The notes: generated by a model not told the origin, from the sequence alone. A DNA stretch of 64,000 nt from Candidatus Poribacteria bacterium (GCA_965198235.1 OZ240248.1:4032001-4096000); one strand, 5' to 3'; shown: positions 58,115 to 64,000, counted from the first letter of the stretch. Made by a program: numbers and translations.

Positions 58115-58122
58115 CTTAAGAT

Positions 58123-58230
58123 ATGCAAATCATCGCCAGAGAGGTCCGAAACTATATCACATCAAACGGGCGGAATCCGTTCCGCGAGTGGTTGACACAA
58201 CTTCAAGATGAACATGGAAACTCTACTTAA
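58123..58230 (+). pseudogene. Truncated RelE-like addiction-module killer protein
   Basis: YITSNGRNPFREWLTQLQD is the typical N-terminus; the remainder is missing. Confidence 0.75.
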
Positions 58231-58534
58231 GCAAACGACCAGTTTTAGAGATGACCTTCTGAAAGACCTCGCAGACATGGAGTTCGCGATGTACTACTTG
58301 GAAGTTGCCCTATCAGACTATAAGGAAGATAGTAATACAGAAGCACTCTGGACAGCACTGTATGATGTTGTAGCGGCACAAGGCGGAATAGGAAAACTCG
58401 CTGAAAGGGCAAAGGTTAATCCTGAACATCTCAACGATATACTCGCCTCTAAACCGGACCCGCGCTTAGATAATCTGCAAAACATTCTTTCTAGACTCGG
58501 ATTTCAGATTCGCTTGGAATTCGCCGAAAGCTAA
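58208..58534 (+). CDS. Addiction-module antidote protein (HTH)
   Basis: YYLEVAL, ALYDVVAAQGGIGKLAE, PRLDNLQNILSRLG. Confidence 0.85.
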   Translation: MNMETLLKQTTSFRDDLLKDLADMEFAMYYLEVALSDYKEDSNTEALWTALYDVVAAQGGIGKLAERAKVNPEHLNDILASKPDPRLDNLQNILSRLGFQIRLEFAES

Positions 58535-59042: not shown

Positions 59043-60218
59043 CTATCCAATCTCTTTATCCAACTCCTCCTGACTCATTTCCTGTACAAATTTGAGAGTA
59101 ATTTCCGAGTCTTTTCCCTCTTCAAAAATCCCCTCTTCAAATGCTCTTATCAACACATTACCGCACCGCTTATTCACGTCTCTCGGTGTTCCGCGTTGCA
59201 AGTTAGACAGGAGTGCCCGGAGTGCCTCTTCCGTAAACGGAAAATAAGGTGTTTTTGGCTTTTCTTGGGGTCTGTAGTAAGAGAGAAGCTCACGGACATA
59301 TTGCAGCATCTTTTCTTGATCTTTCATTTCGTCAAAGAAAACATGTCGAGTAATCCGGTCAGTGAGATAACCTCCAAGAATCAGTTCAATTTCTTCATAC
59401 TCCTCCGGCGAAGTAAGCGTGAAATTCATGAAAAGTGTGAAGAAATAGGGAAGCCGATCTACGAGTTCACGCAATCCTTGTCCAAAAGGCCGGTATTGTG
59501 GCGGTGTAAAATAAATGAAATTCTCCATTTCATCAACCCATAGGCAGAATCGATTGTGCTGGGCTACATCAGTGGATTCAGATAACCCTATAAGACAGTG
59601 AAAAACGCCTGCCAATACCCGAAAATAGTCTTGCGTTTTCGCAATGTTTCGGTTTAAGCCAAGTTTTCGCAATTCCGTAGTCGTGCATTTGCCAAGGAAG
59701 TAGGCACTTAACAGCGAACTAGGCCCCGGAGAGATTGGTGAATCTTCAAATAAATTAAGCAATGCATTCGCGAAATCACCACTCACCATAATTTGACGAA
59801 GGTTTCGTTCAACTATATCCCGCCCAATAGATTCCACATTTTTTTTCACTGCCTCCGCTATTCGATCAAGTCCAATCTGTTCCATGACATCCAAATAAAA
59901 ATCCCTTGCAGGATTCCCAGCTTCGGTAGGTGCCTGAACTCTGAGAACCTCCACATTCTGGACGCTCGGTGATGTCTCAGGAATATTTTTGTCGGAACTA
60001 AAGAAAAGTGAAGCATGTGTTTTACCTCCACCAATAGGACCTCGGCATAACACCACCTGCGTTGGTGACGATGCTTTGGCTTCCCGAAAGACCCTATTAA
60101 ATTCACCTCTGATCACATCCATACCTGCCCAAATTACCTGTTTAGGGTCAGTTGGAGGACTAATCGTAAAGGGGTTTTCCCGTAAACAGGCTATATTCCA
60201 ATCAACCAAGAATTTCAT
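59043..60218 (-). CDS. AAA+-like P-loop ATPase (uncharacterised, probably defence)
   Basis: ENPF, Walker A GPIGGGKT, Walker B LWVDEMEN, DRI arginine-finger candidate, GTPR. Confidence 0.85.
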   Translation of the reverse strand: MKFLVDWNIACLRENPFTISPPTDPKQVIWAGMDVIRGEFNRVFREAKASSPTQVVLCRGPIGGGKTHASLFFSSDKNIPETSPSVQNVEVLRVQAPTEAGNPARDFYLDVMEQIGLDRIAEAVKKNVESIGRDIVERNLRQIMVSGDFANALLNLFEDSPISPGPSSLLSAYFLGKCTTTELRKLGLNRNIAKTQDYFRVLAGVFHCLIGLSESTDVAQHNRFCLWVDEMENFIYFTPPQYRPFGQGLRELVDRLPYFFTLFMNFTLTSPEEYEEIELILGGYLTDRITRHVFFDEMKDQEKMLQYVRELLSYYRPQEKPKTPYFPFTEEALRALLSNLQRGTPRDVNKRCGNVLIRAFEEGIFEEGKDSEITLKFVQEMSQEELDKEIG

Positions 60219-60850
60219 GACTTACCTCGTTTTCTCACAGATGGCAAAACTTTAAGCATACTCTCTAATTCCTTGAGACAATCGCGACACTTACTAAGAC
60301 GCTTCGTCATCTCCTGTTGCGTTCCGGCAATATGAGGATTTATAAGTCGTAAAGCCGAATCAGCCTGAGCGTACGACCACTTTGGAAACATAACAAGATA
60401 GATATGCAGCAGCAACTCCAGCGAAGTCCAAGTTCTTGTTGTTTTGAAGCGATTCTTGTACCAATCAATCAGACCTCGATGTGCCTTCATGTCGTCTGTC
60501 AACATAATAACTTGTCCTGCATATCGTCTCCGAACCAGATAAAGCGCAAGCGCACAGTTATAACGTTCTCCACGATTGTTAGATGGGTTGCCATTTGGCG
60601 AAAATTTGTTAAAAATCAAGTCCTCATAATCCTGCTCATGGGGAAAATATCGCCTCGCTTGACGCACGAATTGTAGCATCGGTTTGTCGTAGCATCCTAA
60701 TTTATTTCTATTTCGCCTGATTTCGTGTGGAATTTCTCGTGAGACTTGCACATTGAACAGTTGATTTAAAATATCAATAATGTGGGATCGGCCTACGTAA
60801 ACCTCATGTATGTTTATGAGCGAAGATGTATCAGGAATCAGAATATCCAT
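60215..60850 (-). CDS. PIN-like domain protein (putative nuclease)
   Basis: ILIPDTSSLI, HEI, RGE..CALA, LTDD acidic set; ATGA coupling to the ATPase. Confidence 0.7.
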   Translation of the reverse strand: MDILIPDTSSLINIHEVYVGRSHIIDILNQLFNVQVSREIPHEIRRNRNKLGCYDKPMLQFVRQARRYFPHEQDYEDLIFNKFSPNGNPSNNRGERYNCALALYLVRRRYAGQVIMLTDDMKAHRGLIDWYKNRFKTTRTWTSLELLLHIYLVMFPKWSYAQADSALRLINPHIAGTQQEMTKRLSKCRDCLKELESMLKVLPSVRKRGKS

Positions 60851-60860
60851 AAGCCTTGGG

Positions 60861-61958
60861 TTAAGTTGGCAAAAAAATAAGATATGACTCATTTTCACGG
60901 TGGGAAAACCGGACTGCATACTGTGTATCAGGCTCTTTAGAACACGCGTCTAGATCCGCATGAAGCTCCTCAAGGTTCACCGCGATTCTGTTATCCCCTG
61001 TGAGAAGGAGTGCCATATAAATGAGTGCCGGATATAAAGAAATCTTCGGCGTAGGTGTGTTCCGGAGCGTTTCAAAGGCTTGAAAAGTGAGTTTGTGAAG
61101 CAGATATTTTTTTTCTAAATCATGTATTTCTGTCCATCGTCGATCAATTGTGCCCATAAGGACCTGTGCAGCAATGCCAAAGAATTGCTCCCGCAACCAC
61201 ACCGGACTTGTGTGAAAAGTCGGCATTCCTTGAATGTTCGGAAGAGACCGAGAAAACTGAATCCCCATCTCTGTTAATCGAGACCGTGTTTCCCCGTCAT
61301 TCTCAACTGAGACCAAACCAAGGTCTGCCAACCAATGAATCCGCGGTGGTACAATATTTTCGATAGAACGTCTTGACCCTTCCTTCCAATGTGACACGCG
61401 GTTCCGGACTGCCAAGATGTCACGTGCTACATGCTCTTCCGCTGTCAGCATACGGGCTTGCAATTGTTGCAGATAAAACGCGGGGAAAGCGTTTTGCAAA
61501 TCGGATAGAGGTTGAGAACGCTTTCCTACCAACATTCTAATAATTGTGAGCAGTTGATCGCTATCCTTCAAAAGAAGCCAATATAGATACGCACAGCGTT
61601 CCGCGTTCGTCAGTTCAAACGGATTTTGATGAGGAGCTCGACACAGAAAAGGGAGCAATGCCTTTCCAAATCGAGTCACACGGTACGCGCCAGCGATTCT
61701 ACCGACGAGGCCCAACGAAACTGCCAAATTAGTGTAGCGTTTTGGACCCGTTTGCCCGCGTGTCGCTTTAATAAAGCCCTGTTGATTCGCGTAAGCCATC
61801 AAATTTTTCTCACGATCAAGGCTCCATTTTTCAAGCCGAGTATAAAGCATAGATTCGCTTAATGTACTATGCTCAAGTAATTGTAGAATTGCAGAGACAT
61901 AACCTAAGCGGCGAACAAGTACATTAATGTCTGTGATTCCAGCTTCATATTTAGGCAT
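60861..61958 (-). CDS. Hypothetical protein with tandem winged-helix-like domains
   Basis: LAVSLGLV...YRVTRFG and RIHWLADLGLV...RLTEMG wing motifs. Confidence 0.65.
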   Translation of the reverse strand: MPKYEAGITDINVLVRRLGYVSAILQLLEHSTLSESMLYTRLEKWSLDREKNLMAYANQQGFIKATRGQTGPKRYTNLAVSLGLVGRIAGAYRVTRFGKALLPFLCRAPHQNPFELTNAERCAYLYWLLLKDSDQLLTIIRMLVGKRSQPLSDLQNAFPAFYLQQLQARMLTAEEHVARDILAVRNRVSHWKEGSRRSIENIVPPRIHWLADLGLVSVENDGETRSRLTEMGIQFSRSLPNIQGMPTFHTSPVWLREQFFGIAAQVLMGTIDRRWTEIHDLEKKYLLHKLTFQAFETLRNTPTPKISLYPALIYMALLLTGDNRIAVNLEELHADLDACSKEPDTQYAVRFSHRENESYLIFLPT

Positions 61959-62381
61959 TTGGCAACCTGCCTGTCAGGGTGTAACCATGAAGAAACTTAG
62001 TCAGACAAAGGGAACAACGACCCACCATTTGGAGGGTCTATCTAACTATTAGTATTGCAGAAGTACGAGGAAACTTCTTAACCACGCGCTACTACAATCA
62101 AGAATAATAGTATACCAAATTTTCCAAACAATCTCAAGAAAAAGATTAATAATCTACGGGCATATAGCTTTCGATCTATAATTCTTAAGTTCAGAGTAGT
62201 GTAATTCCGGCAGTAATGGCAGTGCTACGGAATACTGCTCTCCTGATATTGTGCCTTGAAATACAAATTTACTGTGCCGATGATGCGTTATTTCGCCTCA
62301 TATTCACAGCAGACGCTCGCATTCATCGAAAACGATTTTAAGACTAATTGTTCCTGACACTTCGCGCATGTCCAATGCACG

Positions 62382-62411
62382 TTGACTTCTTTTGAACATA
62401 TAAAGTATAAT
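62382..62411 (+). promoter_or_regulatory. Sigma-70-like promoter, probably leaderless
   Basis: TTGACT-18 bp-TATAAT, ATG 7 bp downstream, no SD sequence. Confidence 0.55.
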
Positions 62412-62418
62412 AAGTTAT

Positions 62419-63357
62419 ATGGAGAATTTCTTAACAACTGAACACATAACTCCACCACAACTGACGAATCCTTCTTTCTCGGGTCATCAGACTTTTCCGT
62501 TTCGGTATACATGGCTGAAAAAAGGTGTTGATGCTGTAATAGAAAATCCGACTGTCTTTTCATCGGAAGATGCCTCCGTTACTTTAGGCGTTGGAAAAAA
62601 CATGGTAAGCTCTATTCGACATTGGTGTACCGTCGCTAGACTCATTAAGGCGGATCCGCACCAGCGTAGAAGGCTTGTTCCGACTGAACTCGGCAAAGCC
62701 ATTTTTAACGACAAAAATGGCTTTGATCCATACCTTGACGATCCAGCAACCCTGTGGCTGATTCACTGGCAGATCACAACGAACATCAACCAAGCAACTG
62801 CATGGTATTGGGCATTTAACGTTTTGAGAAAAAATCAATTCACATCCGATACATTTAAAAAACAAGTGTCCGAGTGGACACAGCAACATAAAGCCTCCGC
62901 GCGACCGGTCTCTGACAACACACTTCAACGGGATATCCATTGCTTTATCCGAACCTACTGCCAGTCACGTCATACCACTGCCGTAGTCGAGGAGAGCTTT
63001 GACTGTCCGCTCGCCGAACTTAACCTAATCGCCGAATCACCAGAAGGTAATGGGTATGAATTCCAACGAGGAGAAAAAGAGACACTATCGTTTGAAGTTT
63101 TTACAGCGACGCTCGTCGCATTTTGGGATCTTTGTTTTTTGGGCAGGGATGCCTTACCATTTTCAGACCTGATGTATGCCCCCTTAAGTCCCGGACGAAT
63201 CTTCAGGTTAGACGAAGACACAATGACAGCATATCTTGAAAACCTTACGCAACTTACTAATGAAGCCCTGCAATACGATGAAACCGCAGGTTTGAAACAG
63301 GTCTATCGACGGGACAATCTAAACCTGATGAAACTCTTAGAGAGGCATTATGGATAA
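62419..63357 (+). CDS. sspB: DUF4007 family protein (SspB-like / BREX type 4-associated)
   Basis: FSGHQTFPFRYTWLKKG, LGVGKNMVSSIRHW, FDPYLDDPATLWLIHW, CPLAELNLI, DETAGLKQ. Confidence 0.85.
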   Translation: MENFLTTEHITPPQLTNPSFSGHQTFPFRYTWLKKGVDAVIENPTVFSSEDASVTLGVGKNMVSSIRHWCTVARLIKADPHQRRRLVPTELGKAIFNDKNGFDPYLDDPATLWLIHWQITTNINQATAWYWAFNVLRKNQFTSDTFKKQVSEWTQQHKASARPVSDNTLQRDIHCFIRTYCQSRHTTAVVEESFDCPLAELNLIAESPEGNGYEFQRGEKETLSFEVFTATLVAFWDLCFLGRDALPFSDLMYAPLSPGRIFRLDEDTMTAYLENLTQLTNEALQYDETAGLKQVYRRDNLNLMKLLERHYG

Positions 63358-64000
63358 CACCCCTTTGTCAAAACTTTTTCAGATTAAGGGTCGTTTTAAG
63401 CGTTCAGTTCATCTGGAACGCGATTTCTACACGGAGAACGCCTTAGATGGGTACATTTTGACCGTTACCGCGCGCGAGATGCTATCGCGTGTCATTGCGA
63501 CGCTTGAAAATGAGACAACATCGAAAGTTTGGTCCCTCACCGGTCCTTACGGGTCAGGAAAATCAGCATTTGCACTTTTCATAGCGAAACTCCTCGGAGA
63601 TCCTAATATTCCCGCAACTCGACAGGCTTTAAAAGTCTTAAAAGATGGAGATACCGCACTACATAAGCAATTTATGGATGCAAAGCTTAACGGAAATTGG
63701 TCGTTATCGGGATTTTGTCCTGTGCTTATCTCTGGAGAGCGCGCCCCACTCTCAATTGCCCTTCTGCGTGGTTTAGAACAAGGACTCAAAACCTCTGAAT
63801 TTCTGTCTGTTGGCTCACTTCAACGGAAGATCAGAAAACTATTGAGAACAGCAGCGAACGGCACACCTCCACAGGCATCTGAAATTACTGCTCTTTTTGA
63901 ATTAGCAACGAGTACTATTGGGGAAAACGGTGGCCAGGGTTTACTATTAGTGATCGATGAACTTGGCAAGTTCCTCGAGTATGCTGCACAAGACCCTGTA
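63350..64000 (+). CDS. SspC/BrxC-like ATPase, N-terminal part (runs off the window)
   Basis: Manual translation RFKRSVHLERD, TGPYGSGKS Walker A, LLVIDELGKFLEYA Walker B; overlaps the DUF4007 stop. Confidence 0.85.
   Translation, partial: MDNTPLSKLFQIKGRFKRSVHLERDFYTENALDGYILTVTAREMLSRVIATLENETTSKVWSLTGPYGSGKSAFALFIAKLLGDPNIPATRQALKVLKDGDTALHKQFMDAKLNGNWSLSGFCPVLISGERAPLSIALLRGLEQGLKTSEFLSVGSLQRKIRKLLRTAANGTPPQASEITALFELATSTIGENGGQGLLLVIDELGKFLEYAAQDPV

Follow-up and report, generated by a model that had tools for sequence, protein, structure and literature searches.

A winged-helix, PIN and ATPase gene trio linked to phosphorothioation genes in Candidatus Poribacteria and other phyla, probably an undescribed arm of an anti-phage system

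Introduction

The locus described here raises the question of what a set of three unannotated genes does in the immediate vicinity of the genes for DNA phosphorothioation (PT). The genes are found in a stretch of 64,000 nucleotides from the genome of a sponge-symbiont Candidatus Poribacteria bacterium (GCA_965198235.1, OZ240248.1:4032001-4096000), referred to below as the window, in which open reading frame (ORF) calls and the sequence itself place a minus-strand trio 460 bp from, and divergent to, sspB-sspC-sspD. The trio encodes, in this order, a winged helix-turn-helix (wHTH) protein, a PIN-domain protein and a P-loop ATPase. A preliminary description of the window had proposed that these genes form a defence effector, which could be tied to the modification genes or be a stand-alone system of the same island.

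The question has a wider bearing. According to excerpts of Wang et al. (2021; PMC8092258), only ~16% of 2,678 sspBCD modules have SspE and/or SspFGH nearby, and therefore the way in which most PT systems restrict invaders, and the way in which PT is sensed if only part of the sites carry it, are open questions. The trio, which is compact, conserved and unannotated, accompanies PT genes in many phyla and pairs with both the Ssp and the Dnd chemistry. It is probably an undescribed working arm of a PT anti-phage system. More specifically, we consider it, with a probability of about one half, to be one functional module of a PT defence subtype and most likely a PT-coupled nuclease effector. In the following, loci are designated by L numbers and genomes by G numbers; coordinates without such a designation refer to the window.

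Conservation of the trio and linkage to phosphorothioation genes

The three genes constitute a conserved unit that is near-obligately linked to sspBCD or dndC(DE). Within the phylum, 22 of the 176 genomes contain the ATPase, which occurs at 26 places in total; 20 of these places were examined, leaving aside that of the source genome itself, four with fragments only (G065, G066 and G102) and a weak match in G007. At 18 of these 20 places tblastn recovered all three genes in the same order. Copies near to that of the window are divergent from sspBCD, and a diverged set (25-32% identical in the wHTH protein and 42-45% in the ATPase) is divergent from dndC-dndD-dndE, a linkage that was confirmed by PADLOC in L016, L018, L019 and L023. 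The genes for PbeA and PbeC are often found 3' of these Dnd-linked Poribacteria trios.

A scan of species-representative genomes yielded 37 loci, 14 of which were already in the Poribacteria set, and the tally was made over 44 unique loci. The trio is intact in 33 of these, each time in the order wHTH-PIN-ATPase, whereas all three genes are present but broken or cut in three, and eight loci are partial. PT genes accompany the trio in 34 of the 44 loci (Ssp genes in 24, Dnd genes in nine and a gene for a 3'-phosphoadenosine 5'-phosphosulfate (PAPS) reductase only in one). Of the ten loci in which no PT gene was found, six run into a contig end, and for seven of the ten sspB, dndC or dndD is present elsewhere in the genome; no PT genes were found for L014, from a genome that is 73% complete, or for L053, for which dndC was not searched. 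We have seen no complete genome that carries an intact trio but lacks PT genes, with the proviso that many carriers are represented by metagenome-assembled genomes (MAGs) only; Pseudanabaena sp. 'Roaring Creek' is the single carrier record whose title does not name it as a MAG. Judged from the record titles, the carriers belong to the Poribacteria, Cyanobacteria, Acidobacteriota, Chloroflexota, Nitrospirota, Bacteroidota, Myxococcota, Verrucomicrobiota, Pseudomonadota, Chlorobiota and Thermodesulfobacteriota.

A metagenome set that is independent of the genome set provided 89 relatives, of which 80 contigs were kept. The full trio is present on 45 of them and is accompanied by PT genes on 34; each of the 11 full-trio contigs without PT genes is truncated within 1.3 kb, on one side at least. 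The gene order sspB-sspC-sspD-trio was observed on eight contigs and sspD-trio-sspB-sspC on seven, both also in truncated forms, sspB-sspC-trio-sspD on one contig and dndC-dndD...trio on two; arrangements in which the trio is divergent from sspB or dndC occur as well. The suggestion that the trio is a stand-alone system within the island is disfavoured by these several orders, in which it is found among sspB, sspC and sspD; the conserved synteny and the tie to the modification genes envisaged in the preliminary description are borne out by the counts given above. The coupling can be very close. At 11 genome loci the stop-to-stop frame of the PAPS reductase overlaps the wHTH frame or ends at most 30 nt from it; taken by called gene starts, the gap between the two genes amounts to up to ~210 nt.

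In a quick tree of 43 ATPases, the eight Dnd-linked copies from Poribacteria form one clade (Shimodaira-Hasegawa approximate likelihood ratio 99) that is nested among Ssp-linked copies, and judging from this tree the change of partner to dndCDE took place in one clade of the Poribacteria. The ATPase of a further Dnd-linked locus, L047, is found elsewhere in the tree, which therefore implies at least two partner switches. A tblastn search with the ATPase against collections of plasmids and phages gave no match.

Predicted activities of the three proteins

The AlphaFold 2 (AF2) model of the 365-aa protein (predicted local distance difference test (pLDDT) 89.3, predicted template modelling score (pTM) 0.91) consists of three tandem winged-helix domains at approximately residues 19-110, 125-245 and 278-365. 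VIA-align matched this model to the recognition domain of FokI (Z 11.0, 192 residues aligned), BrxA (7zge, Z 9.8, 171 aligned), N.BspD6I (Z 9.6), SspB (6juf, Z 8.1, 173 aligned) and BpuJI (Z 8.0), and Foldseek to FokI (E 1.6e-4) and SspB (E 1.5e-2). The protein has, at fold level only, the triple-wHTH arrangement for DNA recognition of FokI, BpuJI, SspB and BrxA, a module that is common to FokI, SspB, DndG and BrxA/DUF4007 according to excerpts of two papers (PMC10853773, PMC12839542). On the basis of the model it is predicted to be a DNA-reading subunit. It belongs to no Pfam, PADLOC or NCBIfam family, and it is no detectable paralogue of SspB by sequence (hhalign probability 6.7%).

The 211-aa protein was modelled with a pLDDT of 90.4 and a pTM of 0.87 and carries a C-terminal helical extension. 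Ranks 1-33 of the VIA-align comparison are PIN-domain entries (Z 11.2-7.9, with 1y82 on top at Z 11.2 and 140 residues aligned), an assignment for which we relied partly on the entry titles and partly on what we take these entries to be. The top match found by Foldseek is VapC4 (5h4h, E 8.8e-3, probability 1.0), and the model and both comparisons agree in placing the protein in the PIN fold. The acidic motifs that the preliminary description had pointed out (DTS, E, GE and LTDD) are indeed present and conserved. In an alignment of 35 homologs D7, E43, G94 and E95 occur in all 35, T118 occurs in 32, and position 120 holds either D (27 sequences) or E (eight). The four acidic positions D7, E43, E95 and D/E120, which we presume to be the catalytic ones of the PIN fold, are thus each kept in 35 of 35 sequences. 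A metal-dependent nuclease is predicted. None of the 16 homologs scanned matched a Pfam family at E<=1e-3; the best curated match, of the L016 homolog to PIN_4 (E 0.0034), fell below the cut-off.

The 391-aa protein contains the Walker A motif GPIGGGKT and the Walker B motif LWVDEME. Over 52 aligned sequences G63, G65, K66, E232 and R288 are invariant, G60, T67, D229 and E230 are conserved in 90% or more of the sequences, and there is a conserved motif P345-R346-x-x-N349. The family placement is soft. The Pfam matches of the protein, to TniB (2.8e-4) and to AAA_22, are both weak. Among 51 homologs TniB scored above its cut-off in four and KAP_NTPase in one, AAA_22 reached its cut-off of 27.0 bits exactly in one, and BrxC_BrxD stayed below the cut-off in one. 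A profile search of the PDB returned weak matches to TnsC (E 0.03) and Cdc6 (E 0.08), and in the nearest ESM Atlas clusters 27-74% of the members carry PF10923 (BrxC_BrxD). The sequences suggest a P-loop ATPase of the ORC/Cdc6-TniB-AAA_22-BrxC/D kind. Its relatives make up 341 representative clusters at E<=1e-3.

Taken as a set, the trio proteins had no PADLOC match at E<=0.01, no Pfam match above cut-off and no NCBIfam match of note. Comparison by hhalign with SspB, SspC, SspD, DndD and DndE revealed no kinship (the probability for SspC is 9.3%, that for SspB is given above), and profile searches of solved structures with the three proteins yielded nothing beyond weak or spurious matches (P-loops of myosin and the TnsC match for the ATPase, annexin, and Rrp44 at 0.44). 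The database names of the homologs are uninformative as well: 'hypothetical protein' and, once, 'ExeA-type ATPase'.

Comparison with known PT and BREX components

Judged from the sequences, the trio is none of SspE, SspFGH, DndFGH or Pbe. As far as SspE and SspFGH are concerned this agrees with the impression given in the preliminary description; the PADLOC library, in which the trio has no match, includes models for SspE, SspF, SspG and SspH.

The most obvious counterpart is SspFGH, which in Vibrio anguillarum FF-93 is likewise a three-gene cassette beside sspBCD with one Walker A member, and which is proposed, in the excerpted text of PMC8092258, to act on DNA with PT as the self mark. However, the PADLOC models encountered span 525-607 positions for SspF (five lengths), 476-533 for SspG (four) and 1255-1766 for SspH (four), and SspH has an FtsK-like C-terminus, whereas in the trio a PIN domain is present and no FtsK-like protein was recognised. 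The 391-, 365- and 211-aa proteins matched none of the SspF, SspG and SspH models at E<=0.01, while the SspF models do detect the true SspF in L034, L054, L058 and L077. The idea that the trio is a divergent SspH-G-F was rejected, as the true SspFGH proteins are far larger and adjoin the trio in other loci. SspE (Xiong et al. 2020, as cited in PMC8092258) is similar to the trio in being an optional partner encoded beside sspBCD, but it is a single GmrSD-type protein of ~750-790 aa, and the trio matched neither the SspE models of PADLOC nor GmrSD_N or GmrSD_C of Pfam.

The combination of a triple-wHTH reader, a P-loop ATPase and a nuclease is shared with DndFGH and with the loci that excerpts of PMC10853773 describe as Orc/Cdc6 ATPase, DndG-like triple-wHTH protein and restriction endonuclease (REase). 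The trio differs from those loci in that its nuclease is a stand-alone PIN protein and not an REase and in that it has no HerA/FtsK or SNF2 part. It had no match in the PADLOC library, for which the presence of DndF, DndG and DndH models was not checked. In the excerpts of PMC10853773 there is no mention of the trio or of an association of it with sspBCD. Two 361-aa genes found 3' of the Dnd-type trios were considered as further members and rejected; they encode oxidoreductases of the GFO/IDH/MocA type.

The bacteriophage exclusion (BREX) systems provide the third comparison. BrxA is, like the 365-aa protein, a tripartite HTH/wHTH binder related to FokI, BpuJI, SspB and DUF4007, and BrxB is an inactive STAND NTPase and not a PIN protein (Rakesh and Krishnan 2026; PMC12839542, in excerpt). 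BrxC/BrxD resemble the ATPase through the PF10923 domain in its nearest ESM Atlas clusters. Nevertheless, none of the PADLOC and Pfam models of BrxA, BrxB, BrxC and BrxD reached its threshold for the proteins of the window, and there is no PglZ, PglX or BrxL among the seven ORFs scanned in L003, a 20-kb locus; the only BrxC and BrxP matches there are secondary matches of SspC, SspB and SspD. A full-text search of the literature did not retrieve a description of the trio, although supplementary neighbourhood tables may list it.

The role of the trio

In the 176 Poribacteria genomes sspB was found in 107 and dndC in 64, as compared to 22 with the ATPase. Most sspB-bearing Poribacteria thus do without the trio, which is therefore optional and not needed for modification. 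In 16 sspBCD loci of Poribacteria that lack the trio, the flanking genes include other candidates for nucleases. A 294-329-aa HNH protein is encoded beside sspB in six of them (L065, L067, L072-L075), and a 703-717-aa PbeA-like protein directly 3' of sspD in five (L065, L067, L072, L074, L075) and beyond sspB instead in L064; NsnA/REase-like proteins occur in two and a TIR protein in one. PbeA is described for Dnd systems, so that its pairing with Ssp here may be of interest. Such varied mixes of flanking genes show a modular build of the Ssp loci, in which the trio is one of the optional modules. The trio has also been subject to decay. In L010 (G132), beside an intact sspBCD, a clean deletion has removed the PIN gene from its place between the wHTH and ATPase genes, in L078 only fragments of the ATPase remain beside an intact dndCDE, and in L079 an N-terminal piece of the wHTH protein is fused to the C-terminal half of the ATPase.

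These features are the reason to favour a nuclease effector: the trio is optional, it keeps a catalytic-looking PIN protein together with an intact ATPase, other nucleases occupy the same position in other loci, and decay affects the trio earlier than the modification genes. Its function, including any role in restriction or abortive infection, we infer from the acidic residues of the PIN protein, the intact ATPase and the gene context. By analogy to the modules of the FokI, SspB, DndG and BrxA type, the triple winged-helix protein would bind DNA and read either the target site or its PT state. The ORC/Cdc6-type ATPase would load or oligomerise on that DNA, and could act as an ATP-dependent switch that allows the PIN nuclease to cleave nucleic acid not recognised as self. 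The target of the nuclease could be invader DNA, which would amount to restriction, or RNA, which would amount to abortive infection. The trio offers a small candidate reader of PT or of the site, in the form of the triple winged-helix protein, combined with a simple nuclease. The Ssp loci mix the trio with SspE, SspFGH, an ~800-aa protein, HNH and PbeA-like genes in different ways, and the inclusion of the trio in the catalogues of defence finders would change the annotation of these loci.

A number of observations weigh against a PT-coupled nuclease effector. The trio frequently coexists with SspFGH, SspE or the ~800-aa protein. In L034, L054 and L058 one operon encodes both the trio and genuine SspF-G-H, recognised by the PADLOC models, the three cases being a Pseudanabaena contig (sspB-sspC...sspD, PDC-S03, sspF-sspG-sspH, trio, sspA), a Blastocatellia MAG (sspBCD, one gene, trio, sspFGH) and a decayed Verrucomicrobiae locus. 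A genuine SspE, carrying Pfam GmrSD_N and GmrSD_C, is convergent to the trio in L042. The third companion, a protein of ~800-825 aa that is 50-80% identical across phyla, adjoins the trio in at least six genome loci and on 22 of the 80 metagenome contigs, and is also found beside sspBCD without the trio in three Poribacteria (L066, L069, L073). It matched no Pfam family at 1e-5 and, by phmmer, no PDB sequence; a split N-terminal piece of it in L052 matched HATPase_c_3 (5.9e-6). In view of this coexistence the trio is not simply a 'missing restriction arm'. In addition, RNases are more frequent among PIN domains than DNases. In a whole clade the trio separates sspD from sspB-sspC, and in the MAGs G181 and G182 a PAPS-reductase gene and the trio are the only PT-like set found; with this placement and these sets a role in the modification step fits just as well. 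On the side of the effector, four sponge metatranscriptome libraries from one study contain short contigs that are identical to pieces of all three trio genes and of sspB, one of them spanning the PIN/ATPase junction, but these matches are a hint of expression, as assembled contigs of RNA libraries do not prove transcription.

The main rival explanation, which we consider doubtful, holds that the trio helps modification as a second DNA-targeting set, composed of a triple-wHTH protein, an ATPase and a nicking nuclease, that works with SspD or DndC. It might then set the site or the frequency of sulfur insertion, or replace SspB/SspC or DndD/DndE in minimal systems. The make-up of the trio in fact mirrors that of SspB, with its triple wHTH (Z 8.1), and SspC, an ORC/Cdc6-type ATPase according to excerpts of PMC10853773. 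This similarity does not extend to the sequences, given the low hhalign probabilities for both. The PAPS-reductase gene is the PT gene nearest to the wHTH gene in 19 genome loci, abutting it in the same direction in 11, and on many contigs the trio separates sspD from sspB-sspC, or sspC from sspD. A Chloroherpetonaceae MAG (L047) encodes DndC, the trio and an HNH protein of 328 aa in one direction; DndD, DndE and SspB were not found in its genome, and this set may be a minimal PT-related system. L043 has an SspD-like gene followed by the trio, again with no SspB or true DndD found in the genome, but here the trio is broken, and G181 and G182 suffer from their uncertain completeness. The optional nature of the trio and the persistence in L010 of a complete sspBCD beside a trio that lost its PIN gene likewise speak against a helper of modification.

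Two further explanations were considered. In the one, which appears unlikely, the PIN protein is an endoRNase that is restrained by the ATPase and the DNA binder and that kills or arrests the cell when a phage inhibits the PT system. Rakesh et al. (2024; PMC10853773, in excerpt) propose such a backup-suicide role for endoRNases of the PIN and HEPN types that border Dnd modification loci, and it would agree with the presence of the trio next to SspE and SspFGH, which are primary effectors. In structure, moreover, the PIN protein comes closest to VapC toxins and to the RNases Rrp44, Nob1 and Utp24, but resemblance to PIN proteins that are RNases does not determine the substrate, no trigger is apparent here, and in many loci the trio is located inside the operon between the modification genes and not at its border. 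In the other, which is very unlikely, the trio shares no more than the island or the promoter region with the PT genes and acts either as a defence system of its own or, comparable to DndB, as a transcriptional regulator of the PT operon. The trio of the window is divergent from sspB with a promoter region in common, the Dnd-type Poribacteria loci are mostly without dndB beside dndC, four loci with full flanks have no PT gene nearby (L013, L044, L048, L060), and there are more distant pairs of PIN and ATPase genes without wHTH gene or PT genes (L120, L141, L153). The linkage across phyla, the overlapping reading frames and the several interleaved gene orders all argue against independence, and a regulator would not need an ATPase plus a nuclease with four conserved acidic residues. 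An extension of the nuclease-effector reading would make the trio a general reader-effector of the PT mark: a paralogue-like scanning pair of triple-wHTH protein and ORC-type ATPase would check DNA for PT and arm the PIN protein, would serve the single-strand Ssp and the double-strand Dnd systems with at least two switches of partner, and together with a PAPS-reductase enzyme alone, as in the L047 type, may form a minimal third PT system without SspB/SspC or DndD/DndE. We regard this extension as improbable.

Gene arrangement in the window and neighbouring genes

The three tightly coupled minus-strand ORFs and the divergent intergenic region that the preliminary description had reported were recovered in the ORF calls and the sequence (Table 1). 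The wHTH frame ends with TAA at 60861, a 10-nt gap (CCCAAGGCTT) follows, and the PIN protein starts with the ATG at 60850; the ATGA at 60215-60218 is common to the stop of the PIN gene and the start of the ATPase gene. As the alignments of the homologs start at the ATG at 60850, with the invariant D7 six residues on, 211 aa is the likely true length of the PIN protein. The promoter-like site directly upstream of sspB (TTGACT-18-TATAAT) agrees with the consensus at 11 of 12 positions and that on the minus strand (TTGAGA-17-TATACT) at 10 of 12; both are consensus matches only, and nine promoter-like sites were observed in total where 6.7 are expected. RNA-library contigs of two runs end at 62070 and 62073, within the intergenic region, which is a weak hint only; the stretch 62109-62400, to which no RNA-library contig maps, does not enter into the argument.

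Table 1. Coordinates of the trio, the adjacent PT genes and other features mentioned in the text
Feature	Position	Strand	Remarks
wHTH gene (first of trio)	60861-61958	-	365 aa, ORF call
PIN gene	frame 60215-60919 (234 aa); from conserved ATG at 60850, 60215-60850 (211 aa)	-	
P-loop ATPase gene	59043-60218	-	391 aa, ORF call
Divergent intergenic region	61959-62418		460 bp, one promoter-like site toward each operon
Promoter-like site toward sspB	62382-62411	+	
Promoter-like site toward trio	62137-62109	-	
sspB (DUF4007)	62419-63357	+	PADLOC SspB E 8.8e-101; Pfam DUF4007 E 4.3e-90
sspC, 5' part	63350-64000	+	PADLOC SspC E 2.8e-56 for the part in the window
sspD	L003:8914-9795, just beyond the window		293 aa; PADLOC SspD E 9.1e-115
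Type IIG/ISP-like protein	L003:10617-13709 (G000:C1 ~4100617-4103709)		1030 aa
Ankyrin/acetyltransferase protein	L003:17423-19297, beyond the window		624 aa
108-aa ORF	58208-58534		
36-codon frame with 108-aa ORF	58120-58534		
~800-825-aa protein	L049:11178-13580; L050:11109-13577; L055:11125-13602; L056:11180-13636; L035:524-2941		
DndC-trio-HNH set	L047:6887-12069		Chloroherpetonaceae MAG
NACHT-PIN-ATPase genes	L044:6714-11167		Chloroflexaceae MAG

The identification of the neighbouring genes as an SspB/SspC-like module proved correct. Together with sspD, for which that description had proposed a check downstream of the window, they form one operon for an SspBCD modification module, with a DUF4007 SspB, an SspC ATPase of 1165 aa that extends beyond the end of the window (PADLOC SspC E=0 for the full protein) and a PAPS-reductase-like SspD. 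A companion sspE, which the same description had suggested looking for, was not found in the source genome (G000, 96.3% complete) with three models of SspE, and neither were SspF and SspG, with one model each (PDLC02797 and PDLC02799).

Several side observations concern the surroundings of the trio and of its relatives. PT genes are unusually common in the Poribacteria, many genomes of which hold both sspB and dndC. In L044 an 869-aa NACHT protein replaces the wHTH gene before the PIN and ATPase genes. In the source genome sspD is followed by a Type IIG/ISP-like methylase-specificity protein made up of an ISP coupler, an N6 methylase and a Type_ISP_C specificity domain, homologs of which are also found 3' of sspD in L004 (94% identical) and L008 (84%). 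Further on, a protein with ankyrin repeats and an aminoglycoside 3-N-acetyltransferase domain (PF02522, 4.4e-39) is encoded. On the other side of the trio, where the preliminary description had noted decayed toxins of toxin-antitoxin pairs, the 108-aa ORF has a weak match, below the cut-off, to the addiction-module antidote family PF21716 (E 2.1e-5) and is preceded by an open frame of 36 codons that matches nothing; to judge from their sequences, the two may be the remnant of a toxin-antitoxin pair.

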